Part shown: one piece after another, positions 1 to 18,462 of the stretch
Numbering within the stretch: the first letter of the stretch is position 1
How the letters are laid out: every line of letters begins with the position of its first letter
Source of the DNA: Kiritimatiellia bacterium
GTDB lineage: Bacteria > Verrucomicrobiota > Kiritimatiellia > RFP12 > UBA1067
DNA length: 64,000 nt
NCBI GenBank assembly: GCA_045617985.1
Contig: JAZLJP010000145.1
Location: 1,075 to 65,074 of the forward strand
Reading direction: 5' to 3'
The notes under the pieces: model-generated
Told to the model about the DNA's origin: nothing
What the model saw: the letters and a program-made list of their open reading frames with translations, nothing else
Databases searched by the model: none
Position numbers and translations under genes: made by a program

Positions 1-365
1 GCGTTTCGTGCCATGGGGAAAAGCGTGCGCCCAAGGCGCCCGATCTGCGCCTCGGCAACTGGCGGAAGAACCGGCTCGGCCACGCGACGAGCTGGATGAA
101 CCTCGTTAACCGCACGGCGTATTTCGGATTGAACTGGCGCAATTTCGCCTTCATGGAACCGGCCTACACGGCGCCGGGCGAGTGGCTGGCGATTGCCGCG
201 CCCCTCCGGAAGATGCTTGACGCGGGCCATCACGGCGTGAAGCTCACGCCCGAGGAACGCGAGCGTCTGGTGATCTGGATGGATTCGAACGGCCAATATC
301 TCGGCCATTGCGACGACATCGAAAAGCAGCGCGACGGCAAATGCGTTCCGCCCGTGATGGAGTAG
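1..365 (+). CDS. 3' end of a gene entering from upstream; C-terminal ~120 aa of an uncharacterised protein. The first visible residues VSCHGEK could be the tail of a CxxCH haem-c motif.
   Basis: Frame 3 is open from nt 3 to TAG 363-365. ORF-track entry 96..365 is only an internal Met of that frame. Composition matches neighbouring genes. Confidence 0.6.
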   Translation, partial: VSCHGEKRAPKAPDLRLGNWRKNRLGHATSWMNLVNRTAYFGLNWRNFAFMEPAYTAPGEWLAIAAPLRKMLDAGHHGVKLTPEERERLVIWMDSNGQYLGHCDDIEKQRDGKCVPPVME

Positions 366-367
366 AC

Positions 368-3300
368 ATGTCGATTAAAAGCATATTCTTGTTTCTGTGC
401 GTTGGAGCGGCTCTTGCCGCCTCGGCGGTGACGCGGGCGTTTTCCATCACCTGCGTGGGCGATTCGATTACGGAAGGCGGAGCGTCGTTTACGACGTACC
501 GCATTCCGCTCGCCCGGCAGTGCGCCGCGAAGGGATGGCAGGTGACGTTCCGCGGGTCGCACGCAACCGAGGTTTCGGGCACGCGCCTCCGCCACGAGGG
601 CTACGGCGGCAACTCGGCCGAACAGGTGGCGGCGAAGTTCGTGGCGCATTTCGCAACGAATGTCGCCGACTTCGTCTTCATCCATTCGGGGCACAACCAT
701 TTCGTCGACGAAGGCCCGATTCCCGGCATCCTCGGGGCGTACCGCGCGATGGTCGATGCGGCGCGCGCGGCCAATCCGCGCGTGACGCTCCTCCTGGCGC
801 GGCCGATTACGTCCGGGAAGCTGCCGAAATACGCCTACCTGCCCGCGCTCGGCGAGGCCGTGGCGGCGCTCGCCGCGGAGCTCGATACGCCCGCCTCGCG
901 GGCGCTCGTCGTGGATGCGGCGGACGGGTTCGACTGGCACACGGATACGGTCGCCGACATGGTACACCCAAATGCCGCGGGCGCCGAGAAGATCGCGCGC
1001 AAGATCGTGGGCGCACTTGAGGCGTTCTTCGCGGCGAGGGAGGCCGTTTCCACGGTACCGAAGGGCCTTCTCGTCGAGGCCGAGTCGTTCGCAAATCCGA
1101 TGGGCTGGGTGAACGATACGCAATCGGTCGATCGGATGGGCTCGCCCTATCTGCTCGCGCACGGCCTCGGCGTGCCGGTTGCCGACGCAACGACGAGCGT
1201 TGCGATTCCCGCAGCGGGCGTGTGGCGCGTGTGGGTGAGAACGCGCGATTGGACGCCCGACTGGCGCGGCGAAAAGCCCGGCCGCTTCCGCGTGACGGTG
1301 AACGGCACGCCGCTCGCGCCCGTGTTCGGAACGGCGCCGGCCGACTGGGGCTGGGTGGATGGCGGCACGGTGACGCTGCCGGCCGCGGCGGTGGAACTGC
1401 GCCTCACCGACCTCACGGGCTTCGACGGCCGCTGCGACGCGCTCTATTTGACGCAAGATCTCGCGGCCCCCGCGCCGCCGGAAGATCCCGTAGCGCTTGC
1501 GCGCTGGCGTGCGGCCGCGCGCGGCGAAGGGGGCGTGCCCGAGGCGACCACGCGTGCGGACCTCGTGGTGGTGGGCGGCGGCATTGCGGGCACGTGCGCG
1601 GCGATTGCCGCGGCGGAGAGCGGCCTTTCCGTCGCGCTCGTGCAAGACCGTGCGATGCTCGGCGGCAACGCGAGCGGTGAAATCCGCGTGAAGACGCAGG
1701 GCGAGGTGCGCCACCCGATCGTGCAGGCGGTGGCGAACACGAAGGAGAACACGAACGCGCAGGCGCATGCGGATGACGCTAGGCGCATGGCCCTTGTGGG
1801 CGGCTACACGAACATCGCGGTGTTCACGCTCTGGCGCGCATACGGCGCGGTGACGAATGGTACGCGCGAGATCGTGGGCGTGGATGCGCGCGACGTGGTG
1901 ACGGGCGCGCGGCGGCGGTTCGTGGCGCCGCTCTATGTGGACGCGACGGGCGACGGGTGGCTCGGCTTCTGGGCGGGCGCCGCCTGGCGGATGGGCCGCG
2001 AGGCGAAGAGCGAGTACGACGAGTCGCTCGCGCAGACCCTTGCCGATACGAGCACGATGGGCAATAGCGCGATGTGGACGAGCCGCCTGGCGGAGGGGCC
2101 GCGGCCGTTTCCCGACGTACCGTGGGCGCTTCCGGTCAGCGGCTCGCGGAGCGCCACGAGCGGATCCTGGAAATGGGAGGCGGGCCTCGGCGTAGATGAG
2201 AACACGATCTGGGACGCCGAGACGCTGCGCGATCGCCTGCTGCGCGCCGTCTACGGGAGCTTCTGGCGGGCGAAGCAATCGAGCGCGCAGGCGAACCGCG
2301 AACTCGACTGGGTGCCGTACAACGCCGGCAAGCGCGAGTCGCGCCGGATCATCGGCGACTACGTGGTGCGGCAGGCGGATGTGGAGAAGGCCGTATGGTT
2401 CGAGGACGCGATCGGCACGTCCACGTGGTCCATCGACCTTCACTTCTACGAGGATGCCTCCGGCTTCATCGCCGGCACGAAACAGGTGAGCGTGCCGCGC
2501 TGGTACATGCCCTATCGCGCGCTCTGCTGCCGCGACGTGCCGAACCTCTTTCTTGCGGGGCGGTGCGCGAGCTTCACGCACGTGGCGATGGGGTCGAGCC
2601 GCGTGATGAACACGGGCGGGCAGATGGGCGTGGCGGTGGGCTACGCGGCGGGGCTCTGCCGGAAATACGGTTGCCGGCCGCGCGACATCTACCGCGACCC
2701 GGCGAAGACGGAAGAACTGCAGGCGCTCATCGGCGGTACATGGCCGCAGCGGCCCGATACCGGCCTTGCGGGCTATCGGGCGAGTCAGCTGCAGGAGGTG
2801 ATTGTGGATAATGTCGCCGCCCAGATCTCCGGCACTTGGACCGTGAGCGCGAGCGAAGGCGAGCGCTACGGCGCGAACTACCTCCACAACGGCAAGGCGG
2901 CGAATACGAGCACATGGGTGCGCTACACGGCCGCGTTGCCCGAAGAGGGCGTGTGGCGGCTCTTCCAGTATTGGAACGGCAATTCGAGCCGTTCGAGCGC
3001 CGTGCCGATCCAGGTGGTGACGCGCGAAGGCACGGTGACGGTGTATGACGACATGACGTCGCCCTCGGGCGGCTGGAAGCAGATCGGCGTGTGGCGCTTC
3101 GGGGCGAATCCGGCCGCGACGGTGCGCACGGAGGGGACGACCGGCTTTGTGATTGCGGACGCCTTCAGGTGGGTGCGCGTGGCGGGCGAGACGATCGTCG
3201 ACAATTCCGACCCCGAAGGCGTGGAGGTTTCGGGTGCGTGGGTGACGAGCGCGTACAACGCGAGCCGCTATGGCGCGAACTACCTGCATAGCGACAAGAA

Positions 3301-3991
3301 GGCGGCGGCGAACCTGTGGGTCAAGTATACGCCGAACCTGCCCACGCCCGGCGTCTATCAGGTGAAGGGAATCTGGAACTCGAGCGACGAACGGGCGAAG
3401 GGGGCCGTATATGAAATCACGCACGCGGACGGCGTGACGCGCGTGAAGGCGAACCAGACGGCGAACTCGGGCGTGTGGACGCTTCTCGGCGCGTGGCGCT
3501 TCGAGGCGGGGCGGAAGGGGAGCGTAAGGATCCTCACGGAAGGATCCGACGGCGAGTGGGTCATTGCCGACGCGGTGATGTTCTCGCCCCAGCCGGATCT
3601 CACGGATCTCGACGGCAACGGCCTTCCCGACGCGTGGGAGCGGGCGAACTTCCTCGTTCTCAACGGCGTCGATCCCGCTGCCGATCCCGATGGCGACGGT
3701 TATACGAACCGGGCCGAGTGGTGGGCGGGGAGCGACCCGAACGACGCCGCGAGCGTCTTCCGCATCGATTCGGCCGTTACCGATGCCGCGCGCCGCATCA
3801 CGCTTTCCTGGCCGAGCTGCGAGGGGCGCACCTACACGGTGTGGCGCTCCAGCCGCCTCGGCGATCCTTTCACGCTCTACCGCGACGGCATCGCGGCGAC
3901 GCCGCCTGAAAACGAAATCACCCTCCCCTCCGACGACGTCGATTCCGCCTTCTACCGCATCGGCGTATGCCCAAATCGCATAATTCCCTAA
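368..3991 (+). CDS. Secreted multidomain protein: SGNH/GDSL hydrolase, CBM-like module, FAD-dependent oxidoreductase-like domain, two golvesin-C-like binding repeats, TSP3-type Ca-binding repeats and a C-terminal beta-sandwich
   Basis: ATG 368 (2 nt after the upstream stop) gives the signal peptide MSIKSIFLFLCVGAALAASAVT. Motifs: GDSITEGG and DMVHPNAAG (SGNH blocks); DLVVVGGGIAGTCAAIAAAESG (dinucleotide fold); two modules containing RYGANYLH; DLDGNGLPDAWE and DPDGDGYTNRAEWWAGSDPND. The track start at 308 would add an Arg-rich non-signal N-terminus overlapping the upstream gene. Confidence 0.85.
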   Translation: MSIKSIFLFLCVGAALAASAVTRAFSITCVGDSITEGGASFTTYRIPLARQCAAKGWQVTFRGSHATEVSGTRLRHEGYGGNSAEQVAAKFVAHFATNVADFVFIHSGHNHFVDEGPIPGILGAYRAMVDAARAANPRVTLLLARPITSGKLPKYAYLPALGEAVAALAAELDTPASRALVVDAADGFDWHTDTVADMVHPNAAGAEKIARKIVGALEAFFAAREAVSTVPKGLLVEAESFANPMGWVNDTQSVDRMGSPYLLAHGLGVPVADATTSVAIPAAGVWRVWVRTRDWTPDWRGEKPGRFRVTVNGTPLAPVFGTAPADWGWVDGGTVTLPAAAVELRLTDLTGFDGRCDALYLTQDLAAPAPPEDPVALARWRAAARGEGGVPEATTRADLVVVGGGIAGTCAAIAAAESGLSVALVQDRAMLGGNASGEIRVKTQGEVRHPIVQAVANTKENTNAQAHADDARRMALVGGYTNIAVFTLWRAYGAVTNGTREIVGVDARDVVTGARRRFVAPLYVDATGDGWLGFWAGAAWRMGREAKSEYDESLAQTLADTSTMGNSAMWTSRLAEGPRPFPDVPWALPVSGSRSATSGSWKWEAGLGVDENTIWDAETLRDRLLRAVYGSFWRAKQSSAQANRELDWVPYNAGKRESRRIIGDYVVRQADVEKAVWFEDAIGTSTWSIDLHFYEDASGFIAGTKQVSVPRWYMPYRALCCRDVPNLFLAGRCASFTHVAMGSSRVMNTGGQMGVAVGYAAGLCRKYGCRPRDIYRDPAKTEELQALIGGTWPQRPDTGLAGYRASQLQEVIVDNVAAQISGTWTVSASEGERYGANYLHNGKAANTSTWVRYTAALPEEGVWRLFQYWNGNSSRSSAVPIQVVTREGTVTVYDDMTSPSGGWKQIGVWRFGANPAATVRTEGTTGFVIADAFRWVRVAGETIVDNSDPEGVEVSGAWVTSAYNASRYGANYLHSDKKAAANLWVKYTPNLPTPGVYQVKGIWNSSDERAKGAVYEITHADGVTRVKANQTANSGVWTLLGAWRFEAGRKGSVRILTEGSDGEWVIADAVMFSPQPDLTDLDGNGLPDAWERANFLVLNGVDPAADPDGDGYTNRAEWWAGSDPNDAASVFRIDSAVTDAARRITLSWPSCEGRTYTVWRSSRLGDPFTLYRDGIAATPPENEITLPSDDVDSAFYRIGVCPNRIIP

Positions 3992-6772: not shown

Positions 6773-7548
6773 GTGGAACTCATGAAAAGGTGGAATGAGA
6801 TTCGTAGGGATGCTACCGCATTTGCGAAGCGGTGGAAATCCGCCTATGATGAGAAATCGCAGGCGCAGTCGTTCCTGAAGGAGTTCTTCGAGGTCTTCTG
6901 TGTCGATATTGTGCAGCAGGCCACGTTTGAACATCGGGTCAAATTCGCGGATGGCTCGCAGGGGTTCGTGGATATGTTTTGGCCGGGACAGATCCTCGTC
7001 GAAATGAAATCGAAGGGCAAGGATCTCGATGCGGCCTTCAGTCAGGCGATGGACTATGTTCGCGCCTTGCCCGCGAGCGGCGCGGCCGGAGTCCGCGCCC
7101 TACCGCGCGCCATCGTTGTTTCCGATTTCCAGACTTTCCGATTCTACGATCTCACGAAGGACAACGCGCTCACGTCGTTCAAGCTCTCCGACCTTCGCAA
7201 GTACGTGACGCTCTTCGGGTTCATGATCGGCGGCGAGGCCGATGACATCCGCGAGCAGGATCCCGTGAACCGCCGGGCCGCCGAGAAGATGGCCCGGCTG
7301 CACGATGCCTTGAAGGCGATCGGTTATCGGGGAAAGGAACTCGAAGTCTATCTCGTGCGGCTCCTCTTTTGTCTCTTCGCCGAGGATACCTCGATCTTCA
7401 AGCCCGACCAGTTCTCCAACTTCATCAGAAACTCGATGCCCTTGTCGACAAGGCCTACGGGCGAACCTTCGCGAACGACGCCGAGCGCGTGGCCCACCTC
7501 TTCAACCTCTATGCGCAGTGCGTGGCGGTGCAAAGGGATGCCGGCTAA
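6773..7548 (+). pseudogene. Internally deleted MmeI-family type IIL/IIG restriction-modification gene: N-terminal nuclease region joined out of frame to the last ~40 codons
   Basis: WNEIRRDATAFAKRWKSAYDEKSQAQSFLKEFFEVF...VDMFWPGQILVEMKSKGKDLD...ELEVYLVRLLFCLFAEDTSIF matches the MmeI N-terminal region as I remember it. Near nt 7428 the sequence jumps to KLDALVDKAYGRTFANDAERVAHLFNLYAQCVAVQRDAG* in another frame (stop TAA 7546-7548). The methyltransferase and TRD regions are missing. Confidence 0.8.
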
Positions 7549-10500
7549 ATGATTCCCGAACTTTCCACCATCCAAGTCAATGCCGTCTATGCCTGCGCTG
7601 CGTTTGTCGGAACAGCTGTTGTCGCATTTGGCCTTACGCGTGGAGTAAAATTCCTCTCTGGCGGTGCGAAGAAGAGCCTCGCGGCCGCGTCTCTCGTGGG
7701 GATGGTTCTCATCGGCAGTATGACGGTGACGAGTGTTCGAATCGCGGCCGCCAAGACTAACGACACGCAGCAAGTTGGAGGGGATCTTTCAAGTACAAAC
7801 GATGTCGGACAAATTGAAGGGGGAACGAACGGCATGTCCCAAGTGGGAGGGCCGCGCTCTGTCGCGGCCGGGAGCCAAATGGAAAATGTAAAATTGAAAA
7901 TGGAAAATGAGTGTGGGGAAACCAACATTTTACATTCTCCATTTTACATTTTACATTCGAACGCGGCCCTCCCGGAAAACGCAGTTACAGACGAAGACAT
8001 TGCCCATCGTTGGTACGTCGCTTCGGTGTCGTCCAATTCTCTTGACACATCCATCTTCGCATTTCCCTCGGCTGTAATCGAACAATCCCCTACTGTTTGG
8101 GAAGCCGCTCAACGGCGCGGAGCTGTTTACGGCGCGTGGAACATTCCCCTCAAAGGTTGGAATTTCCCATTTGATGACCATGGTTGGTCGAACGCTTTCA
8201 TGCGCTGTGAGGGCATTTTGCGTGATTCGTTCCGCGATGCATCGGATCAGATTCGCTTCCTTTCTCCGTTTGCGCTTTGCCCGGCGGCGAATTGGGCGCG
8301 CTATAATCTTTCAGCAAGTCGCGCTTGGTGTGCGACTAACGGACTCGGAGGTTTGACTGTTGCCGTTGAGAACGGCGCTCTTGGAAATGATTCTACCAAA
8401 CTTGCAAGTGCGCGCATTGATCTTGATCCATTGCTCGGCGAAATCCGGCTTCGTTATGATCTCTCACACATTGACGATACAACCTTTGATATTGGTCCGA
8501 CGGTGAACGGTACGAACACGTTCGTGATGGTTGGCTCGAATACGAGCGAAGTCGTGTTCCGTCGAGTCCATCCCAACGACTGGGATTACGATGGACTTGC
8601 GAACAGCCTCGATCCGAATCCGCGCGTGCCCGAGAACGGAGCGGGATGGAACCAAAGCGACATCTGGGGAAGTCTCGCCTATCCAAGCAATGCAACCGAA
8701 ATCTCTTCTCTTGGTTATCCCGCATGGGTTACAGGTCGGGCCGCCGATCCGAACCGCCGTCTTGTCAGTTTCACCGTTAACTCGCAACATGGGAACTGGC
8801 CCATCCGTTTGACAGTCGGCGATCTGCCTGTTTTATGCGATGGGAAAGAGAAATTGAAGTTCGCCATCGACTGCGGCGCGAAGTATGCGTTCTCGCTTTC
8901 AGAGGGCCAAATCCCTGAGATTGCTGTACTGACGACGAACGGCGTTGAACATGTGTACGGAGACCCCTATTTCGGCTATCCTGTGGAACGCTCAATTTGG
9001 GATGTGACGATCCATTGGGATTCGCCGCAGAGCGGATGGGTGGGGTGCAAGGCTTCTGTTGACATTAAACTCGATGGCCGTGATGTCTGCGACTTCGGCC
9101 ACGGCGATTCCGACGGCGGAATATTCGGGCACTTCCTGCCTGGTGCGCTGCACGTGTTGACGGGAGAAGTCCACCAGTGCCATTCGAACGCCTTCCTCGG
9201 TTGTACCTGGTCGGGAGGGCCGGGCTTCTCCTTTTCGAATCCGCATCGGCTGTCGACGGATGTCATGTGGATCGCTCCCGACGACACGTCCTGGGCGACG
9301 AACTTCATTTCGCTTGTCACATGGTACAAGGGCGGTTATTCGCTCACGAACACCATCATGGCGTGTGTTGGCCCGGAACATGTGCCGCCGCTTGGTTTTT
9401 CCTTGTCGTGCCAGGATGTCCTCTTCTTGAATGACGAACTCAGACCAGAAAGGATTTATGCGGTGACGGTTGGCCTAACGGCGACGAATGGCGTGGAGGG
9501 CCAGGTCACGTTGGAATGTGATGGAGCCGAATCGACATTGAGTTATTTTCATGATGTTTTCCTGCCCACTCAGGTTCAGGGCATCACCTTTCCATTGGGG
9601 GTTTCTTCCAACGATTGGTTTCACAGTAGCAAAACGGTGTTCATGTCGTGTTCCGCCATTGGAGATGGCGAACTCAGGGCATCGATTTCATTCACTAATG
9701 GGACGAGCTGTGCGACGTCCAAGGTGTTCAGGGTCATTGAACCGATTCGGAAGCTGGTGGATAATGAACGGTATAGCCCGGGGCATTACTACAATCCGTC
9801 ACGCTTGGTCTATGGCGATGTCGCCCATCTGCGCGTCGGCGTGAATGGCACTTTTAATCCCGGAGACGTCGATTGGCGCATCGTATCGGGGCCGGGAAGG
9901 CGCGTCACGTACAGCGGCTTCCTTGCAACCATCGAGGCGACGGCCGAAGAGGGCACGGTCGTCGTCGAGGCCCGCTTCAACGAAGATGAAATCCAGCCGA
10001 CATTCGTCTTGCCCATCGTGAAGCCTAGGGTGATCCCGGCTCGCGCGTTTGTTGCGCCACCACCAAGGGAGTTGAGGAAGAATGCGTGGAGAGAGAGTGA
10101 CATCCGCGCTCGTATCGATATGGCCAACGACATCTTTTCACAGGTTGGTATTTCTTTCAATCTGTTGTCTACTGAGTACAATTTTTGTTCCGAGACAAAT
10201 TGGAACATTCGGGCCATCACCACGCAGAGAGATGAAAATGGAGAATATTACAACGCTACGACCGATCAGTTGGATGCATTACTTGATCATTATCAGGGGG
10301 ATGATTGCATAGAATTGTATTTCCTCGGTGAATTTCGAGACAAGACGACACTTGGCATTCATCATGAAAAGGGGCTTGTGATATCTCGAAGAGCGGATGT
10401 CAATGCTCTTGCGCATGAACTTGGACATCAATTTGGACTAAAGGATTGTTATTCTTTTGTCGAACACGAAGATTCTGGAACGAATGCCTGGACGCTTTTG

Positions 10501-10776
10501 CCGGATTATTATACGCCTGTCAAAAAGGCTTCCCTTGTTGGAAAAAACGATTGGGGAGAAGAAACGGGAAGAGGGTTCTATGAGTTTTGTGACAAGCATG
10601 GTGCCGTATATGGGAGTTTTCTCATGTTCGGATATAACGGATTGTCGCCCAAGGACATACCTGATGGGCAGGTGTTTAGTCTAAAGGAACACGCAACGTC
10701 ATCCAATGAGACATGGTATGTCGAGATTGGAGCAGAAGGAATTAACACAAATAATGTGGAGGTTTATACACAATGA
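7549..10776 (+). CDS. 1075-aa protein with N-terminal TM segments and a C-terminal zincin metallopeptidase-like domain (HExxHxxGxxD)
   Basis: ATG 7549 directly follows the TAA of the R-M remnant. Hydrophobic N-terminus AVYACAAFVGTAVVAFGL / LVGMVLIGSMTV. Zn-binding motif ALAHELGHQFGLKDCY near the C-terminus. G+C is visibly lower than the flanks. Confidence 0.8.
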   Translation: MIPELSTIQVNAVYACAAFVGTAVVAFGLTRGVKFLSGGAKKSLAAASLVGMVLIGSMTVTSVRIAAAKTNDTQQVGGDLSSTNDVGQIEGGTNGMSQVGGPRSVAAGSQMENVKLKMENECGETNILHSPFYILHSNAALPENAVTDEDIAHRWYVASVSSNSLDTSIFAFPSAVIEQSPTVWEAAQRRGAVYGAWNIPLKGWNFPFDDHGWSNAFMRCEGILRDSFRDASDQIRFLSPFALCPAANWARYNLSASRAWCATNGLGGLTVAVENGALGNDSTKLASARIDLDPLLGEIRLRYDLSHIDDTTFDIGPTVNGTNTFVMVGSNTSEVVFRRVHPNDWDYDGLANSLDPNPRVPENGAGWNQSDIWGSLAYPSNATEISSLGYPAWVTGRAADPNRRLVSFTVNSQHGNWPIRLTVGDLPVLCDGKEKLKFAIDCGAKYAFSLSEGQIPEIAVLTTNGVEHVYGDPYFGYPVERSIWDVTIHWDSPQSGWVGCKASVDIKLDGRDVCDFGHGDSDGGIFGHFLPGALHVLTGEVHQCHSNAFLGCTWSGGPGFSFSNPHRLSTDVMWIAPDDTSWATNFISLVTWYKGGYSLTNTIMACVGPEHVPPLGFSLSCQDVLFLNDELRPERIYAVTVGLTATNGVEGQVTLECDGAESTLSYFHDVFLPTQVQGITFPLGVSSNDWFHSSKTVFMSCSAIGDGELRASISFTNGTSCATSKVFRVIEPIRKLVDNERYSPGHYYNPSRLVYGDVAHLRVGVNGTFNPGDVDWRIVSGPGRRVTYSGFLATIEATAEEGTVVVEARFNEDEIQPTFVLPIVKPRVIPARAFVAPPPRELRKNAWRESDIRARIDMANDIFSQVGISFNLLSTEYNFCSETNWNIRAITTQRDENGEYYNATTDQLDALLDHYQGDDCIELYFLGEFRDKTTLGIHHEKGLVISRRADVNALAHELGHQFGLKDCYSFVEHEDSGTNAWTLLPDYYTPVKKASLVGKNDWGEETGRGFYEFCDKHGAVYGSFLMFGYNGLSPKDIPDGQVFSLKEHATSSNETWYVEIGAEGINTNNVEVYTQ
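7870..7961. mobile_element. MITE-like AT-rich palindromic insertion inside the 7549 CDS, flanked by a 7-bp direct repeat
   Basis: The left arm is five tandem heptamers ATGNAAA (7879-7913). The right arm is five heptamers CATTTTA/CATTCNN (7926-7960), its inverse. The direct repeat CGCGGCC sits at 7863-7869 and 7962-7968. Element plus one repeat copy is 99 bp, or 33 codons, so the ORF stays open. Confidence 0.5.
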
Positions 10777-11618
10777 AGTTTATATGGTGGCTCTCGTTGG
10801 TCATGGTTTTGATGGCTCTAGATGCCGTTTGTGCGTATACACCAGCAGAGACGAACGACATGGTTAGAGGAATGCTCTTTCGTGTTGTGGATTTCTATAG
10901 CCATGACAATTTTCCGGCAAATGGAAGAATTGTCGTTCGTGGTGAACCGCCCGACACGTGGGAGCGTTTTCTTGGACAATCGCAGGGTGGGCGATGGACA
11001 ACGGAGGAACGTAAGGCCGCTTTTGATTGGTACCTTTCCACTCTTGGAACGAATGATTGTCGTGCATTGCCTTGGATGGAGCAGAGGTTTGTTCGTGTAG
11101 CGCTGTCGCGTTGCGACGTTTTATGCTATACAAATTCCGTACATTATTTGCGAGCGTTGGCATTGAATCCTAGAGGGATTTGCAGGGATGAAGCCAGCGA
11201 ATTATATTTAAAGCTTTCGCCAGTTTCTGATGTTACCACTTCGTTCGTTGAAACGATCATGACCAACGTGGTCGGTTTTAGTTCTGTTGAGAGAGGAATA
11301 ACGTGTGGTATTTATGCGCGCAAGGCCTGTTTGTTCAATTCGACGAATACGGTTGATGTGGCGGCAAAGGCCCGGGCTGTTCAGATGTTCTATCGGAATC
11401 GTCGTTTTGGTTATGAAGCGGCGTATCTTATTGACGAGCTCTTCGTGTCCTCGATTGCAGGTTATGCGATGAGCTCCAATCGCCTTGATACGGTCCTGGA
11501 CATGTTGTCGAAAATGGATGCCGATGATTTGGATCGACCAGACTTCATCCCTATCACCAACCAGCTCCTCTCGGCGGGCCAGCCGCTGCGGCAGTTGAAC
11601 TTGGATGGGAATGAGTGA
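10773..11618 (+). CDS. Exported 281-aa helical protein of unknown function, translationally coupled to the zincin protein
   Basis: ATGA overlap at 10773-10776; signal peptide MKFIWWLSLVMVLMALDAVCA; low G+C like its partner. Confidence 0.7.
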   Translation: MKFIWWLSLVMVLMALDAVCAYTPAETNDMVRGMLFRVVDFYSHDNFPANGRIVVRGEPPDTWERFLGQSQGGRWTTEERKAAFDWYLSTLGTNDCRALPWMEQRFVRVALSRCDVLCYTNSVHYLRALALNPRGICRDEASELYLKLSPVSDVTTSFVETIMTNVVGFSSVERGITCGIYARKACLFNSTNTVDVAAKARAVQMFYRNRRFGYEAAYLIDELFVSSIAGYAMSSNRLDTVLDMLSKMDADDLDRPDFIPITNQLLSAGQPLRQLNLDGNE

Positions 11619-11678: not shown

Positions 11679-14600
11679 TTAGAACAGCGTTTCCGGGATG
11701 AAGCAGGTTGCGAGCACGTGACCCTTCACCACCGTGGACGACACATGGATCGACCGGCCCGTGAACTGCTTGAAGCTTTCAAGCCACTGGCCGGTGAGTT
11801 TGACCGTCATTTCGCCTGTCTCGGCCTGGAAGGTATCCACGATGAGTTCACGCGGCGAATAGCGGATGCCGGTACCGAGGGCTTTCGAAACGGCTTCCTT
11901 CGCGCACCAGAAGCGAATGGCGGCCGAAGGGGCATTTGCGGCGCGCAAGGTGAGGTTGCGCTCTTCATCCGTAAAGACGCCGCGCGTGAATTCCTCGGAG
12001 AGGTCGCGATCGCGCATTTCCACGTCGATGCCCACGCGGGCGTTCGTGCCCACTACGGCCACCACGAACTGGGCGGTGTGGGCGATCGTGAGGTCGAGCG
12101 GGGCGGTGAGATAGTCGCGCCAGCGGCCGATGGCGTGGGGCTTGCCGCTATCGTCGCGCCATACCTGCACGTCGGCATCGCACCAGCGGGCCTGATAGTG
12201 TTCATGGAGGAACCGGCGCACGGCCTCTTTGGCGACGAGACGGCCGAAGAGCCACTCCGTGCGGCGGTTCACCGAGCCGGAAATGCCGGCGAAATCGGCG
12301 AGTTCGGTTTTGCTCAAGACGACGCGGGAGAGCGTGCGTAGCCAGAGTTCCTCGTTGCGTTCGAACACGGGGTAGGGTACGTCGCTCACCATCGCCGAGG
12401 CGATGGGCGTATCCGGCGCGCCGAGGAGTTCGCGCGGAAGCGGCTGCGAGAGGAACGTCATCGCCGGATTGAGAAGCTGCTGGCGGAATTCCTCCGAAAC
12501 GCGCTCGGTGATTTCCTCGTAGCCGCGGAGGGCGAGCACGAGCTGGCCGTTGCCGTCCGAAACGAGAATATCGGTGATAAGCGACTTGGGCGTGACGCCC
12601 GTATTGCGCAGATAGCAATTGAGGTGCATGCCCTTCGCGAGCGGCGCGAAGAACTCGATGCTCCGCACGCGCACGGGGAAGGAGAGCGCGCCCGAAAAGC
12701 GCGATTCATGGCTGCGCCAGAGCTGGAAACCGTCGGCAATCGCCGCGAGGAGCTGCGGGTTGAGCGCCCACACGGGGAATTTCGCGTGTGGCACGGTGCC
12801 TTCGCCGGAGGGCACTTCCACCTCGTAGTCGATACCGGTTTCGCTCCAGCGGTTCGCGGCACGGATGGATTGGAGGGAGGGGCCTGAGTAGAGACGGTCG
12901 GGATAGATGTCGCTTGTGGTCCAGTGGACGTCGCGCGCCTTGGAAAGAGCGGGCGGCACGAACGCGGGGGAGGCCACGGCCTCTTGGGCGAAGATGATCG
13001 TCGCTTCCATGGCGCACCAGGTCCATTGCGCATCGGGATGGTCCTCGCGGATTTGCACATGCACGGCGACGAGCGCGGGGTCGTCGCTTGCCGTGCGCTC
13101 GGCGCGAACGTAGAGGCGCAGGGCGTCTTCGTCGAAGGCGATCGGGCGGCGGCTCTGCAGGCCCTCGACGGCGGCAACGCGGCGGTTGGGCACCATGGCC
13201 TGTGCAACCTCGGCCATGATTTCGGCGGCCACCACGGGATGGAGCAAAACGAGGCCGTGGAGCTTCGCATCGGAGAAGGCCACGTGCTCGGCGGCGCCGA
13301 TGGCGAAGTCCGCAAGGAAGGGGGCATCTTTGAAGGAAAACGTTTTCACCACCTCGCGGATGCCGGGCTGGAGATCCACCTCCTCGGCATCCGCCACGAG
13401 CGGGCTTGTGGTGCCGTAGACGAAAAGGCGGTTCTTCTTCCGCTCGCGGGCGGCCGCGGCGGCGGCGCGCCGTTCGGCGGCCTTCTTGCGGGTGCCGGGG
13501 GTCGAGTCGGCGGAACTGGACATCACCTCGTTGAAGGAGATATCGGCCGAAAGGAGCGAAAGGCGCGGGAAGTCGCGCGAGAGCCGGAGTTCCGTTTCGG
13601 AACGGATTTCGAGCGCGAACGGCGCATCGAAATCGAGAAGGCGCGCGTGCCGGTGAGCGTAGAGGGCTGACGCATCGACGCCGTGGCCAAGGGCGGCGAG
13701 CGCACCGAGCGTGTTCTCAAGCTGCAAGAGGCCGGCGCGATGTACGGTGTCCGCCGCGAGGGCGGCGTGTTCTTCGCCGCGGAGGATGTCGTCGATCATG
13801 CCCGTCAACACGCCGCGCGGCCCCACCTCGAGGAACACGCGGTAGCCATCGCCGTACATGCGGCGGATCGTTTCGTCGAATCGTACGGGCGCCACCCAGT
13901 TATCGGCCGCCTCGTTGCGCGCCTTGCGCGTTTTCGGCGGAAGGGGACTGGCGCTGCCGCACGAATAGACGGGAACGTTCGGCGCCTGGTCTACCCAGCG
14001 CCCCGCGAGTTTGTTGAAAAGGGGCAGGATCTTCTTGCACCAGGGCGTGTTGAAAGGCCGGTCCACATCCAGGCGCATTCCTCTCACACCCACGGCCGAA
14101 AGCGCCTTCATCACCTCGTCGGCCACCTCCGGCGCGAGGGCGAGCGTACTTTGCTTGGGGGAGAAAATGAAGGCCTGTTGCACTTGGTCGGGCGAGAAGG
14201 CCTTGAGCGTTTCTTCGATGAGGCCGGGGTGGGGCGCGATGACGGCCATCAACACGCACGTGGGCAGCCCCTGGTGGGCAACGGCGTTATTGACGACCTT
14301 GTAGGTGTCGCGCAGAAATTCCAGGCGATGCTTGCGGTCGAACTTCTTCCCGAAAACGCCGGCGGCCGCGAGGGCGTTCAAGTCGCCGCCGGCAAAGCCC
14401 GTGGCGCCTTCGGGGCGAATCTCGAGCGTTTCGAAAAGGCGCGCGAGCGCGGCGTTCGCCGTGTAGGTGGAAACGACGGTCTCGGCGTAGGCGCCGCCGG
14501 AGAAGACGTCTGCATCATGGCGGTAGTAGGAGGCGGGCGGGAAAACGAAGTCGGACGGCTGGAACTTGCCCGAGCCGGCGAGCGCCGCTTCGAGCTCGTC

Positions 14601-15020
14601 GAAGGGGAGGCGGCATTCGCGGAACCGTACGGCGAGGTCGCGGAGCATATCCGGGTAGAACGAGGCCGCCCCCGGGAAGACGAACGCGAGTTTGCCCATG
14701 CCTTCGCCGAGCAGATGCTGGCGGAAATAGTAGGTGCCGCTTCGGTCGCGGATGCGGGCGGTGCCCAGGCGGATGCGCTCGGCCGCCGAGACGAGACGCG
14801 AGCGCAAGTCGCCGGCCGAGCGCACGACGAGCGCGAGAACGGCGGTTCGTTCGGCGGGAAAATTCTTCGAGCAGGTGTAGGCGATGTCGCGGAGGGCCAC
14901 GCCCGGGGCCTGGTCGAGGAAGCGCACGAGCCGATCGGCCGCATCGGCGAGCGCGGCGTCGCTCGCGGCGCCGAGAAGGATGAGTTCGCTCCCGAAGGCT
15001 TCGCTGAGATCGGCGATCAT
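11679..15020 (-). CDS. PKS-like multidomain protein: acyltransferase-like domain (Ser/His dyad substituted), Ala/Arg/Lys linker, PS-DH-like hot-dog domain and an Sfp-type 4'-phosphopantetheinyl transferase
   Basis: Start MIADLSEAFG at 15020, with an ATGA overlap on the upstream stop. AT-like blocks: FVFPGAASFYPDML (vs FxFxGQGxQ), GFAGGD (vs GHSxGE) and RPFNTPW (vs AFHS). DH-like block: LADFAIGA. PPTase motifs VGIDVE and FWCAKEAVSKALG are intact. No ACP (GxDSL) or KR Rossmann motif seen. Confidence 0.8.
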   Translation of the reverse strand: MIADLSEAFGSELILLGAASDAALADAADRLVRFLDQAPGVALRDIAYTCSKNFPAERTAVLALVVRSAGDLRSRLVSAAERIRLGTARIRDRSGTYYFRQHLLGEGMGKLAFVFPGAASFYPDMLRDLAVRFRECRLPFDELEAALAGSGKFQPSDFVFPPASYYRHDADVFSGGAYAETVVSTYTANAALARLFETLEIRPEGATGFAGGDLNALAAAGVFGKKFDRKHRLEFLRDTYKVVNNAVAHQGLPTCVLMAVIAPHPGLIEETLKAFSPDQVQQAFIFSPKQSTLALAPEVADEVMKALSAVGVRGMRLDVDRPFNTPWCKKILPLFNKLAGRWVDQAPNVPVYSCGSASPLPPKTRKARNEAADNWVAPVRFDETIRRMYGDGYRVFLEVGPRGVLTGMIDDILRGEEHAALAADTVHRAGLLQLENTLGALAALGHGVDASALYAHRHARLLDFDAPFALEIRSETELRLSRDFPRLSLLSADISFNEVMSSSADSTPGTRKKAAERRAAAAAARERKKNRLFVYGTTSPLVADAEEVDLQPGIREVVKTFSFKDAPFLADFAIGAAEHVAFSDAKLHGLVLLHPVVAAEIMAEVAQAMVPNRRVAAVEGLQSRRPIAFDEDALRLYVRAERTASDDPALVAVHVQIREDHPDAQWTWCAMEATIIFAQEAVASPAFVPPALSKARDVHWTTSDIYPDRLYSGPSLQSIRAANRWSETGIDYEVEVPSGEGTVPHAKFPVWALNPQLLAAIADGFQLWRSHESRFSGALSFPVRVRSIEFFAPLAKGMHLNCYLRNTGVTPKSLITDILVSDGNGQLVLALRGYEEITERVSEEFRQQLLNPAMTFLSQPLPRELLGAPDTPIASAMVSDVPYPVFERNEELWLRTLSRVVLSKTELADFAGISGSVNRRTEWLFGRLVAKEAVRRFLHEHYQARWCDADVQVWRDDSGKPHAIGRWRDYLTAPLDLTIAHTAQFVVAVVGTNARVGIDVEMRDRDLSEEFTRGVFTDEERNLTLRAANAPSAAIRFWCAKEAVSKALGTGIRYSPRELIVDTFQAETGEMTVKLTGQWLESFKQFTGRSIHVSSTVVKGHVLATCFIPETLF

Positions 15021-16417
15021 TGGCGGTCCTCCGTGGTGGGTTCCTCTTCGAGGATGATGGCGGCGCGGCGGCCGCCGAGGTCGTTCACAAGAACGGCGGC
15101 GCGGCGCGGGGAACTCGGGTCGCCCGTGATCCAGGGGCGGGCGTCGTTCAGGAGGTAGACGGAGGAACTCAGGTTCGACAGGGCATCGAGCGGACGCTCC
15201 GCGGGGATCTGCGGCGGCAGCACTTTCCGCCGCAGCGCGAGGGCCGCCTTCAGAATCGACGCAGCCGCCGAGGCGCGGAAACAGTGGCCGATGTTGCCTT
15301 TGACGGATCCGATGCCCACGAGCGGATCGCCTGCGTGGTGTTCGCCCCAGAGCTTCTGAACGGCCGCGATTTGCTCGGCGTCCACATCGGGAATGCCGCA
15401 GCCGTCGCCTTCGATGAGCTGGATCGATTTGAGCGGCGTATCGGCGCGTGCGGCGGCGGTTTCGAGGAGAACTTCGGTAGGCTGTGCGCCGCAGGCGACG
15501 GATCTGACGAGCGCGTAGATGCGATCGTGGGCCGTGAGGGCGTCGGCCTCTCTCTTCAAAACGAAGAGGGCGCCGCCTTCGCCCGGCAAGGTGCCCGAGC
15601 TGTCGCGGGAGAACGGCACGAGGTCGCGCGCGGTGGAAAAGGGAACTTCGCCGGAAAGCCCTTCGAGGAGGGCGCGGTTCAAGGGCGCGGAAATCGAGCC
15701 GGCGAGCGCCACGTCGGCGCGGCCGCTGCGAAGATCGTCCATGGCGGCGCGGAGCGCGGCGATACCCGAGAGGGCGCCGGCGTCGAGCGTCGTTGCGCCG
15801 CCGGTGAAGGCGCACTCACGGGCCATCCAGCCCGCGACGCGGTGGCCGAGCCCGGCGAGAAAGCTTGTGGCATCGGGCGCGGGGAGGGAATCGACGAGGG
15901 CCTCGCGCACCACGCCGAGCGTCTCTTCCGGCGCGTTGCTGAAGAAGCGGCGGATGATATCCATCGTCTGGTCGATGAAGAACGTGTGTTCGAGCCAGTT
16001 CACGGTGGAGGCGCTGAAGGGCGGCGCGTAGCCGAGACGCACGGTGCCGCGGAGGGGTTCGACGGCGTGGGATCTAAGGCCCGCATCGGCGAGGGCGTCG
16101 AAGGCGAGCTGTACGGCGAAGTAGAGATCCTGATTTTCGCCGGCGTTGATCTGGCGGGGAAAGGTGATGTCGCGCGGCACGCAGGCGTAGAGGTCGCCGA
16201 GCTGGCCGCCGCAAACGGGGTAGGGCCGGTCGAAAAGGTTCTTCCCGCCGGGCGGCAGGGCGACGTTCGGCTCCAGCGGCGCGATACCGCTTTCGTGATG
16301 CATGATGAGGCGCCAGAAAGCGCGGGGGTCGGCTGCGGCGGCGAAACGGCACGACATGCCCACGATGGCGATGGGGCTTTTTTCCCGCGCGGCGTTGACC
16401 TGTTCGTTCTTACCCAT
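15017..16417 (-). CDS. Beta-ketoacyl synthase-like protein with substituted active site (KS0/CLF-like)
   Basis: SPIAIVGMSCRFAAAADPRAFW is a typical KS N-terminus. TTLDAGALSGIAALRAAMDDLRSGRADVALAG lines up with the DTACSSS block with Ala (codon 15773-15775) in place of the nucleophilic Cys. IEGDGCGIP replaces EAHGTGT. GSVKGNIGH is retained. Confidence 0.8.
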   Translation of the reverse strand: MGKNEQVNAAREKSPIAIVGMSCRFAAAADPRAFWRLIMHHESGIAPLEPNVALPPGGKNLFDRPYPVCGGQLGDLYACVPRDITFPRQINAGENQDLYFAVQLAFDALADAGLRSHAVEPLRGTVRLGYAPPFSASTVNWLEHTFFIDQTMDIIRRFFSNAPEETLGVVREALVDSLPAPDATSFLAGLGHRVAGWMARECAFTGGATTLDAGALSGIAALRAAMDDLRSGRADVALAGSISAPLNRALLEGLSGEVPFSTARDLVPFSRDSSGTLPGEGGALFVLKREADALTAHDRIYALVRSVACGAQPTEVLLETAAARADTPLKSIQLIEGDGCGIPDVDAEQIAAVQKLWGEHHAGDPLVGIGSVKGNIGHCFRASAAASILKAALALRRKVLPPQIPAERPLDALSNLSSSVYLLNDARPWITGDPSSPRRAAVLVNDLGGRRAAIILEEEPTTEDRQ

Positions 16418-16437
16418 GGCTGGCGGATCCGTTTCGT

Positions 16438-18462
16438 CTACTCCTGGGCCGCACGGGGCTCGCCGTCATCGGTGTAGGTGAGCTCGACGGGGGTTACGTC
16501 ATTCCCGGTGCGGCGGGTGAGATAGCGCACGGAAACGAGCTGTTTGGGCTTGCCGTCGGCGGTGCGGGAAACGATGCGTTCGCCGGTGGGGGTAAAAGAG
16601 GCGGTGGGGGTGCCGTTGCGGGAGCGCGTGAAACCGAGGCAGGTACCGTTCTTGTCGTAGGTGTAGGTGTCGGTCCAGTCGCGGGGCAGAACGAGGTAGG
16701 GGTCGCAATAGTTTTGGGCGGGGTTCGAGTAGTCGATCGCGGCGATTTTGCCGTCGGGCCGGTAGGTTCGTACTTCGAGGGGCACGGGGGTGAACGAGAT
16801 GATCGAAGGGGCGCCCCAGTCGGTGGCGCCGGCGACTTTCGCGAAGCAGGCAACGTCGAGGCGATTCGTAAGGCCGCGGCGGTCGATGGTGATCTGGGCA
16901 AAGCCGCGGCTCGGCGTGTTGAGGGCTTCGCCGGGCGGAGGCTCGATTTTCACGCGCCAGGGCTCGCCATTGACCACATGCCAGGTGAAGACGGCGTTTT
17001 GCAGTTCCTTTTCGGGATAGGTTTGGGCGCGGAACAGGAAGGTCCGTTCGCCGGCAGGCGCGCGGAGCATGAAGGCGATGGCGGAAGGCGAAGCGAAGAT
17101 CAGCTCGGGAAGGAGATCGGGAAAGTCGCGTTTGGCCAGAGGATAGTGAATCGGGAAGCGGCGCGAGTTGATGAAGGCGAGCGAAGTCGCGGGGGGGATC
17201 TGTTCAGGTTTGAGCGCATGGGCCTTTTGCACGAGGCGTGCCGTGTCGAGGCGGGAGGCGGCGAAGACGGTGGGGTGGGCCTTGGCCGAGAGGTAGTCGG
17301 TTTCATTCGTAACGCCTTTCAGGGTGCTGCGCAAAAGCCACTGGAGGGTGGGGCCCATCAAGTGGCGGCCGGTGATGGCGCCTTTCGTGACCTTGTTGAA
17401 GGAGGCCGATGCGGCGAGGGCGGCGCGGAGGAACGGCTGGTCGCTCCACGACGCACCAAGCGAAACGCATTGGAAGGGGGCGTTCGCCGGAAAGAGATCG
17501 CCGATGCCGGGTTTCCCGTAGTCGTTCACGCAGGGGATCACCCAGAACTGGTTGTTGCGGTAGAGGGTGTCCATGCGTTCGGCGAGGTTCGGCTCCGTGA
17601 AGGAATGGCGGGCCATCGAGCGCCAGTAGGGGCCCTTGGTAATGCCGCGGGAGATGTTGCCGAAAACAGGATTGGGAAAGAGGGCGTTCGGATGGTTGAC
17701 ATCGGCCGATACGGCCTGGGCCTCTTTGGGATAGCGAACGGAGGTGAGCTGCGGATAGTCGCCGAGAGCAAGGGCGGAATGGTTCCGGTCGCGGTTCACG
17801 TAGAGGTCGCCCGCATTGCCGGCGCTCGATCCTTCCGAAAGCCAGGCCGCGACGTACGGGACTTCCGGGGCGGTGGGTTTCGACTTCGAGAAGTTCATGG
17901 CCTGGAGGGCCAGCGGGGTTTTGGAGGGTTTCAGCTGGAGGAGGGCGCTGTAGAGCCCTACGTCGAAATTCCACACGAGGTTCGTTTCCGCAAGGGTGAC
18001 CGTGCTGCCGTATGTCGCGGAGCGGGGCACGGGCGTGGGACGCCCCGGGACGGGGGCATCGGCAAGCGCACGGGCCTTTTCCACGAGCTCGGCAAAACGC
18101 GGAAGATCTTTCAGGCGGGTGAAATCGCGATCTTCCGCAATCGCCTTCGCATTGCGGAAGCCGAACGTGATGGCGCGTTCGAGTTCGTCCAGGGCGGCGT
18201 CGGGCGTTGGGCGGTAGGCGAGCGCGCAGGCGAGATTGTAGTGCCAGATGGGGTCTCCGGGCACGACGGCCACTCCCGCGCGGCAGACCTTTTCCATCAT
18301 GTTGAAGTCGCCGCTCCGAACCGCTTTGGCGAGTTCCTGGCGAAGGAAATTGTGGCGGGACAACACCTGGGGCAACGCCCAGATGGAGAGGGGCTTTTCC
18401 TCGTCGGCCCAGAGGGTGAACGAACAAAGGGAGACCAACAGAATGAGACTGAATTTTTTCAT
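16438..18462 (-). CDS. Secreted 674-aa protein of unknown function with a TPR-like N-terminal region; first gene of the PKS-like operon
   Basis: Signal peptide MKKFSLILLVSLCSFTLWA; only a 20-nt gap to the KS-like gene; coding composition throughout. Confidence 0.75.
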   Translation of the reverse strand: MKKFSLILLVSLCSFTLWADEEKPLSIWALPQVLSRHNFLRQELAKAVRSGDFNMMEKVCRAGVAVVPGDPIWHYNLACALAYRPTPDAALDELERAITFGFRNAKAIAEDRDFTRLKDLPRFAELVEKARALADAPVPGRPTPVPRSATYGSTVTLAETNLVWNFDVGLYSALLQLKPSKTPLALQAMNFSKSKPTAPEVPYVAAWLSEGSSAGNAGDLYVNRDRNHSALALGDYPQLTSVRYPKEAQAVSADVNHPNALFPNPVFGNISRGITKGPYWRSMARHSFTEPNLAERMDTLYRNNQFWVIPCVNDYGKPGIGDLFPANAPFQCVSLGASWSDQPFLRAALAASASFNKVTKGAITGRHLMGPTLQWLLRSTLKGVTNETDYLSAKAHPTVFAASRLDTARLVQKAHALKPEQIPPATSLAFINSRRFPIHYPLAKRDFPDLLPELIFASPSAIAFMLRAPAGERTFLFRAQTYPEKELQNAVFTWHVVNGEPWRVKIEPPPGEALNTPSRGFAQITIDRRGLTNRLDVACFAKVAGATDWGAPSIISFTPVPLEVRTYRPDGKIAAIDYSNPAQNYCDPYLVLPRDWTDTYTYDKNGTCLGFTRSRNGTPTASFTPTGERIVSRTADGKPKQLVSVRYLTRRTGNDVTPVELTYTDDGEPRAAQE

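Follow-up and report, generated by a model that had tools for sequence, protein, structure and literature searches.

A degenerate synthase gene pair with an intact phosphopantetheinyl transferase domain in Kiritimatiellia

The gene pair and its active sites

The subject of this analysis is a gene pair in a 64,000-nucleotide stretch of a Kiritimatiellia bacterium genome (contig JAZLJP010000145.1), which we call the window. The pair encodes a ketosynthase (KS)-like protein of 466 aa and a protein of 1113 aa in which a linker, an acyltransferase (AT)-like domain and a dehydratase (DH)-like domain are followed by a 4'-phosphopantetheinyl transferase (PPTase) domain. An earlier note on this DNA, made from its letters, had proposed that the pair is a pseudo-enzyme. 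The proposal is borne out, as the three synthase domains are without their catalytic residues, the PPTase is intact and the whole is under purifying selection. The minus strand carries three open reading frames (ORFs) in a head-to-tail row, in order of transcription the 674-aa ORF, the KS-like gene and the gene of the 1113-aa protein (Table 1). The start ATG of the last of these, at 15020, overlaps the stop codon of the KS-like gene (ATGA, in the context caATGAtc); the ORFs, their coordinates and this coupling had been given correctly by the earlier note.

Table 1. Genes and domains of the locus, in order along the window
Feature	Positions	Strand	Remarks
1113-aa protein, linker-AT-DH-PPTase	11679-15020	minus	stop codon 11679-11681
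Sfp-type (W/KEA) 4'-phosphopantetheinyl transferase domain	11682-12380	minus	residues 881-1113
Pseudo-dehydratase, double hotdog	12381-13385	minus	residues 546-880; Pfam PS-DH
Post-AT linker and basic helix	13386-13625	minus	residues 466-545, TRKKAAERRAAAAAARERKK
Pseudo-acyltransferase	13626-14705	minus	residues 106-465
KS-AT linker domain	14706-14984	minus	residues 13-105; Pfam CurL-like_PKS_C and RhiE-like_linker
KS-like protein (pseudo-ketosynthase)	15017-16417	minus	466 aa, type I KS fold
674-aa ORF	16438-18462	minus	signal-peptide-like hydrophobic N-terminus (by eye), TPR end-of-group domain

The KS-like protein has the N and C domains of the Pfam ketoacyl-synt family, and its AlphaFold2 (AF2) model resembles KS folds of type I polyketide synthases (PKS) in Foldseek, with template modelling (TM) scores of 0.61-0.68. 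Its best sequence match in the PDB is 6riw, which we take to be the KS-chain length factor (CLF) didomain of a polyunsaturated fatty acid (PUFA) synthase, and the similarity of the pair to the PfaA and type I PKS models of NCBIfam stays below threshold. The active-site columns of the KS and AT were read from phmmer alignments to solved structures and then from family profiles. At the KS nucleophile the protein has LDAGALSG against the canonical lDaaCaSs, which puts Ala215 in place of the Cys (codon 15773-15775), and the first histidine is replaced by Asp338 (IEGDGCGIP against iEcHatGtp, codon 15404-15406). The Cys-His-His triad of a condensing beta-ketoacyl synthase is therefore absent. The second histidine, His378, and Lys373 are kept (KGNIGH against KsNiGH), an addition to the list of substitutions that had been drawn up by eye. 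Among 70 KS orthologues the Cys column is variable (M, A, I, L, V or S) and holds Cys in none, the first His column has Asp in 53, His in 10 and Glu in 4, and the second has His in 67. The protein also differs from a CLF or a KSQ domain, having neither Gln or a similar residue at the Cys column nor, in 83 related loci, a second KS within 10 kb that could be its active partner.

In the 1113-aa protein, Pfam recognises the KS-AT linker, Acyl_transf_1, PS-DH and ACPS domains. In fused synthases such a linker docks the AT onto the KS; here it is modelled by AF2 at a predicted local distance difference test (pLDDT) score of ~90, and its Foldseek matches are KS-AT didomains. The AT-like domain has GAASF in place of GQGSQ. 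At the nucleophile it has GFAGGD against GHSvGE/GHSxGE, with Ala210 for the Ser (codon 14391-14393), and in the dyad RPFNT against AFHS, with Asn324 for the His (codon 14049-14051), so that neither the Ser of GHSxG nor the His of AFHS is present. In the DH-like domain the histidine of HxxxGxxxxP is replaced by Phe572 (FLADFAIG against FLxDHTLG, codon 13305-13307), as had been noticed by eye. We also find that the aspartate of the LLD...Q/H motif is lost, LLD having become LLA with Ala759 (codon 12744-12746). The DH columns were aligned to active family members and to a homologue of ArsD. Because insertions make the DH His column unreliable in a global hmmalign alignment of relatives that contain an acyl carrier protein (ACP), we relied on the relatives without an ACP and on the Asp column, which has Asp in 128 of 138 active representatives. 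A sequence search of the DH region against the PDB gave no match even at E<=10, and the assignment rests on Pfam PS-DH, the family alignment and Foldseek. The AF2 models of the two proteins have pLDDT scores of 73 and 64, and lead in Foldseek to KS-AT-DH structures of type I PKS and fatty acid synthases (FAS) and to KS domains.

The PPTase domain stands apart from this pattern of losses. Its motifs are complete: GRLVAKEA, GKPH, IAHT, VGIDVE (Asp999 and Glu1001) and FWCAKEAVSK (Lys1041, Glu1042 and Lys1046). The Pfam ACPS model (1e-16) and TIGR00556 both score above their cut-offs. The domain of about 230 aa consists of two AcpS-like lobes, residues 899-990 and 1000-1108, each of which aligns to AcpS structures, and the C-lobe also matches the PPT domain of fungal FAS (4v58, E=5e-5). 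It has what distinguishes the Sfp-type (group II, W/KEA) enzymes, namely the two lobes together with (V/I)G(I/V)DxE, W/F-x-x-KEA-x-x-K, GKP and h-S/A-h-x-H. No variation is seen at D999, E1001, K1041, E1042, K1046, K960 and H981 in 25 orthologues, and 84 of 84 retain the two main motifs, in line with the earlier reading of VGIDVE and FWCAKEAVSK as preserved. The domain is predicted to transfer 4'-phosphopantetheine from coenzyme A (CoA) to the serine of a carrier protein.

No carrier protein domain could be found within the pair itself. The absence of an ACP and of a ketoreductase (KR), also remarked on before, agrees with the lack of any Pfam match to PP-binding or KR domains on the 1113-aa protein. 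Between the AT and the DH, residues 466-545 are modelled as disorder with one helix (511-534), and since the segment is disordered apart from this one basic helix we conclude that it does not hide a cryptic ACP. The same position holds an ACP in the active relatives P0264, P0267, P0282 and P0300, and the basic helix is restricted to the inner clade of the degenerate family described below.

Conservation, relatives and the order of losses

Relatives of the pair occur in at least 248 species in a scan of one genome per GTDB species. The best 80 of these at least 248 loci come mostly from metagenome-assembled genomes (MAGs) labelled Kiritimatiellia, Verrucomicrobia or Lentisphaerae, with a few under other bin labels, and mainly from gut and rumen but also from groundwater and biofilm. 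Homologues of the 1113-aa protein number more than 500; those listed, 120 in all, are full-length with 51-82% identity. For the KS-like protein there are more than 600, with 59-86% identity among the 120 listed. Full-length frames predominate among the homologues. Their annotation in Kiritimatiellia MAGs goes no further than 'PPTase superfamily protein' and 'polyketide synthase'. In genome mining the pair may be counted as biosynthetic potential of gut and rumen Kiritimatiellia. The KS-like gene directly precedes the AT-DH-PPTase gene in most loci, and the two overlap by 4 nt in both loci that have gene calls.

The substitutions are themselves conserved in the orthologues. The AT dyad His is found in 0 of 84 and the DH His in 0 of 84, and RPFNT stands in 69 of the 84. 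The Ser to Ala change at the AT nucleophile holds for the window, while 19 of 84 orthologues keep a Ser in this column, none of them with the preceding His or the dyad His. Several residues of the AT-like domain are invariant or nearly so and specific to the clade: Y166, R167, D169, A170, D171 and F173 of the largely invariant stretch YRHDADVF (residues 166-173), G211, G212 and D213, and R321-T325. Ratios of nonsynonymous to synonymous substitution (dN/dS) were calculated by the Nei-Gojobori method between the window pair and its three closest relatives, plus a fourth (L010). Against the three closest they are 0.10-0.17 for the KS, 0.11-0.23 for the AT, 0.17-0.23 for the DH and 0.10-0.12 for the PPTase. 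Against L010 they are higher (KS 0.25, AT 0.22, DH 0.37, PPTase 0.19 and linker 0.52). The PPTase has the lowest values of all domains, 0.10-0.19, and purifying selection acts on every domain, the dead ones included.

To place the pair among its relatives, the family profile was searched against 1.84 billion representative proteins, which gave 2638 representatives at E<=1e-30. Apart from the first dozen, the matches are 1100-1990 aa long and their AT motifs are intact (PGEGSQ, GHS[ST]GE and R[PA]YHT); most also keep the DH His and Asp and the PPTase motifs. The homology to this KS-AT-(ACP)-DH-PPTase subunit amounts to 400-700 bits and covers the AT and the DH-PPTase part. Many of the active relatives are fused from KS to PPTase, and the Cys-His-His triad is present in 53 of 54 of their KS domains. 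Their gene order is conserved: a megasynthase of 2300-2860 aa with the order enoylreductase (ER)-KS-AT-KR-DH, the PPTase-bearing subunit, and a small ACP-like protein of 99-108 aa, with hydrolase, methyltransferase, glycosyltransferase or phosphodiesterase genes further downstream. The one megasynthase tested (L085) passes the cut-off of the PfaA model with 1098.9 against 1010.1 bits. The small protein has an ACP-like DLxxES motif; that of Streptomyces is a RefSeq acyl carrier protein with a Pfam PP-binding match, that of Rhodobacteraceae matches weakly and that of L085 has no match.

Two side observations concern these active relatives. Conserved ORFs of 99-107 aa with an ACP-like motif, DLxFES(I/V)D, lie downstream of them in L084-L086 and L092 (the one tested, from L085, has no Pfam match). 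Behind them come a Phosphodiest (PF01663) gene and one for an alpha/beta hydrolase, and the four loci look like an uncharacterised type of Pfa-like lipid cluster in metagenomes. The reverse of the window pattern is seen in P0253, P0270, P0306, P0342, P0362, P0370 and P0374, where the AT motifs are intact and the metal-binding and KEA motifs of the PPTase are degenerate (for example FGLGVD, NGFVLG and CARKS). It appears that some synthases have remained active while their in-cis PPTase decayed.

In a neighbour-joining tree of 139 representatives, every one without an AT catalytic residue falls into a single clade of 13, all of which lack the DH His. In one branch of this clade the AT Ser is lost and the AT His kept, and the triad is intact in the sole KS examined there (L090). 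Both the Ser and the His of the AT are kept in two members, and the KS adjoining one of them (L091) has a Cys to Ala change. On the inner branch, which includes the window, all the synthase catalytic residues are gone. These sequence comparisons place the pair in a degenerate and monophyletic side branch of a large KS-AT-(ACP)-DH-PPTase family that is catalytically intact. In L090, the only intermediate with enough flanking DNA, the pair already stands alone among unrelated genes and is not followed by an ACP, and because of this we suggest that separation from the megasynthase came first and was followed by a stepwise loss of catalysis.

The window pair is likewise an orphan in its neighbourhood. 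We surveyed the 10 kb around the pair in the window and in 83 Kiritimatiellia loci, 1.36 Mb in total. Within these limits there is no other type I synthase gene, KR, ER, small ACP, AcpP or AcpS; no second KS occurs in the 83 loci, and a search of the 1.36 Mb for AcpS, AcpP and small ACPs returned the PPTase domain itself as the sole match. No PfaA-like megasynthase with a carrier protein is encoded next to the pair in the window or in any of these loci. Gene calls are available for two of the loci, and in both the pair is surrounded by unrelated housekeeping genes, which are not the same in the two genomes.

Among described systems, the Pfa-like 'secondary lipid synthases' of Shulse and Allen (2011) include types M-T with a nearby PPTase that has the hShxH motif (PMC3098273). 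We regard the active relatives as Pfa-like 'secondary lipid' synthase subunits, with examples on plasmids of Streptomyces sp. NBC_00984 and Rhodobacteraceae SC52 that we would assign to types M-O. The window pair agrees with them in homology over the full length, in domain order and in the W/KEA type of PPTase, and in them, too, KS and AT-DH-PPTase are often encoded by two overlapping genes. What sets them apart from the window pair is that the KS Cys-His-His, the AT GHSxGE and YHT and the DH His and Asp are in place, and that a PfaA-like megasynthase flanks them on one side and a discrete ACP with tailoring genes on the other. The other close relative, ArsD of the alkylresorcinol (ars) cluster, has been described as a PPTase modifying ArsA (PMC4824345). 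Its domain content was taken from the homologue on Beijerinckia indica pBIND02, in an ars-type cluster (type P). This 629-aa DH-PPTase aligns to residues 568-1113 with 27% identity (E=1e-32), so that the DH-PPTase half is common to both. The ArsD homologue has no KS or AT part, retains the DH histidine (YLADHAF) and adjoins ArsA and two type III PKS genes, neighbours that the window pair does not have.

The earlier note had taken the enediyne PKS (PKSE) as its model, and this comparison did not hold. PKSE are iterative type I synthases of the order KS-AT-ACP-KR-DH-PPTase, with active domains and a C-terminal in-cis PPTase. The window pair shares this last feature and a similar domain order, but PKSE have the ACP and KR that it lacks, and judged by entry names there is no PKSE structure among the PDB matches listed. 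As the pair has no ACP or KR, its best KS structure match is 6riw and its nearest relatives are the Pfa-like subunits, which have no KR in that subunit, and the ArsD type, we rejected PKSE as the closest family and consider the analogy superficial. In non-condensing KS domains (CLF, KSQ and KS0) the KS fold is kept without the catalytic Cys for a structural or partner role. In CLF and KSQ the Cys is typically replaced by Gln, and their partner is an active KS or ACP of the same system; the window family differs in its variable hydrophobic residue, in the loss of the first His as well and in having no active partner within 10 kb. Integrated PPTases exist (PMC3909215). The alpha subunit of fungal type I FAS is similar to the 1113-aa protein in bearing a PPTase on the synthase polypeptide and in the match to the C-lobe. 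Fungal FAS is, however, fully active and modifies its own ACP, whereas the window pair has no ACP in cis and no synthase chemistry. Inactive KS domains, inactive AT and DH domains, such as those of modular PKSs, and in-cis PPTases are each already known; what appears to be new is their combination in an orphaned subunit that has lost the activity of all three synthase domains and is yet kept throughout a bacterial class around a live PPTase. A search of the accessible literature on Kiritimatiellia PPTases, on pseudo-enzyme KS with PPTase and on integrated PPTases found no description of this family.

What the gene pair may do

The pair almost certainly makes no polyketide. Because phosphopantetheinyl transfer is the only chemistry left, we read it as a stand-alone Sfp-type PPTase on a pseudo-enzyme scaffold, the vestige of the KS plus AT-DH-PPTase subunit of a Pfa-like synthase, and we consider this reading reasonably likely. 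Its ancestor would have been the second subunit of a Pfa-like (PUFA-synthase-type) 'secondary lipid' synthase with a DH-PPTase half of the ArsD kind. The partner megasynthase and the dedicated ACP would have been lost in a lineage that includes Kiritimatiellia, and the catalytic residues would have disappeared from the DH first and from the AT and KS next, while the in-cis Sfp-type PPTase was retained. The KS-like protein and the linker-AT-DH part may still come together in the manner of a type I condensing region and form a structural or carrier-protein-docking chassis. The pair would then do no more chemistry than load phosphopantetheine from CoA onto a carrier protein whose gene lies elsewhere, with the primary fatty-acid ACP as the most plausible candidate, and the dead domains would be kept for assembly, dimerisation or carrier docking. 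Some bacteria do serve their primary ACP with a single Sfp-type PPTase, as Pseudomonas does with PcpS. That such a scaffold would deliver or regulate the PPTase, as had been proposed, we can only infer.

Looking at the weak points of this reading can help to show where it may fail. The negative result of the neighbourhood survey applies to 10 kb and says nothing on the rest of the genomes, be it an AcpS, another PPTase, carrier proteins or a PfaA-like megasynthase. In about eight loci (L009, L012, L019, L020, L029, L030, L049 and L082) the AT-DH-PPTase gene has no adjacent KS-like gene, and the upstream DNA is long enough to show one; the partner may lie elsewhere or be dispensable in these. 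The AF2 models are of moderate quality, with the N-lobe of the PPTase poorly modelled. Additionally, a role as chassis does not obviously explain the invariant new residues of the AT-like domain (YRHDADVF, GGD and RPFNT), which may leave room for a new ligand-binding or catalytic function.

Two explanations would remove the need for any pseudo-enzyme at all. The loss of all three synthase active sites is what one would expect of plain decaying pseudogenes. The several hundred homologues with mostly full-length frames, the many invariant positions and a dN/dS well below 1 in every domain leave this with a negligible probability, and we conclude that simple decay, against which the earlier note had argued, is excluded since the assembly is conserved under purifying selection. 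It could also be that the pair is a normal, active PKS or FAS module and that its catalytic residues were missed through a wrong register in the alignment by eye. In independent phmmer and HMM alignments the catalytic columns hold Ala, Asp, Ala, Asn, Phe and Ala, where the same alignments give Cys, His, Ser, His, His and Asp for the active relatives. The first five of these substitutions had been listed by eye and that list was right, and we find it very hard to believe in a misread register.

The remaining explanations differ in what the dead domains are good for. The pair could be the dedicated subunit of a dispersed Pfa-like synthase, giving its PPTase and a CLF-like partner to a megasynthase and an ACP encoded elsewhere. 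In Pfa systems an inactive KS partner, such as CLF, is a normal component, and the best PDB match, 6riw, taken above to be a KS-CLF didomain, would fit such a role. All the active relatives work beside such a megasynthase, and ArsD serves ArsA (PMC4824345). We nevertheless think a dispersed synthase unlikely, given that no type I synthase gene lies within the surveyed distance in any of the 83 loci, that the neighbours called are differing housekeeping genes, and that with the KS, AT and DH chemistry lost the synthase would miss the functions of this very subunit. Alternatively, one of the dead domains may have a new function. The AT-like domain could be a new enzyme or a sensor of a ligand such as CoA, malonyl-CoA or acyl-ACP, with a site built on YRHDADVF, GGD and RPFNT, and the protein would then be bifunctional or its PPTase regulated. 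These motifs are invariant or nearly so in 25-84 orthologues and absent from the active relatives, where the stretch at 166-173 is variable and acidic, and the domain is under a constraint like that of the PPTase (dN/dS 0.11-0.23). But no known catalytic arrangement can be recognised in it, the loop at 159-175 is of low confidence in the model, and the conservation could equally reflect packing or docking surfaces, so that we hold a new function to be improbable as well.

A stronger form of the stand-alone PPTase reading, which we put forward only tentatively, is that a whole synthase subunit was turned into a heteromeric pseudo-enzyme chassis for the main, and possibly the only, PPTase of the cell, in which docking surfaces or the site formed by YRHDADVF, GGD and RPFNT recruit or gate the substrate. 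If true, this would be a new and regulated architecture for an essential housekeeping enzyme. The pair is an unusually clean natural case of pseudo-enzyme evolution in a megasynthase, in which three domains were silenced stepwise and are yet under purifying selection, with the PPTase as the one survivor. Should this PPTase act in primary metabolism, an accessory biosynthetic subunit would have been captured for a housekeeping role, which would also hint at roles of the KS, AT and DH folds beyond catalysis, in docking, dimerisation or regulation.

Surroundings of the pair and other features of the window

The 674-aa ORF lies upstream of the KS-like gene with a gap of 20 bp, and the two are probably co-transcribed in the window. 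Its sole match in the Pfam and NCBIfam scans is TPR_END_plus, in the N-terminal part. The earlier description of a secreted, co-transcribed protein stands in so far as co-transcription is probable here and the N-terminus resembles a signal peptide by eye. The gene is not part of the conserved module, however, since a homologue adjoins the pair in only 1 of 83 related loci (L004, the closest relative, at 62% identity). A scan for promoters and terminators gave nothing above chance, and no lipid or carrier-protein genes were recognised among the window ORFs that were scanned.

The pair is flanked by a divergent valyl-tRNA synthetase gene and, on the other side, by a convergent low-GC stretch. 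This stretch (6773-11618, GC 0.49-0.55 against ~0.65) lies directly downstream of the PPTase gene. It starts with a truncated N-terminal fragment of an MmeI-type (type IIG) restriction-methylase of 259 aa (PADLOC REase_MTase_IIG, 1.7e-56), which is followed by ORFs of 1075 aa and 281 aa, both without family matches, and it looks like the remnant of a mobile or defence island. Farther away, two tandem ORFs of about 1375 aa (39785-43918 and 43934-48052) have a Calx-beta domain at the same position and are apparent paralogues; they come after a 1448-aa ORF with a thioredoxin-like domain. At 308-3991 a multidomain ORF of 1227 aa combines a GDSL lipase, an FAD-dependent oxidoreductase, Golvesin_C and a bacterial TSP3 repeat.

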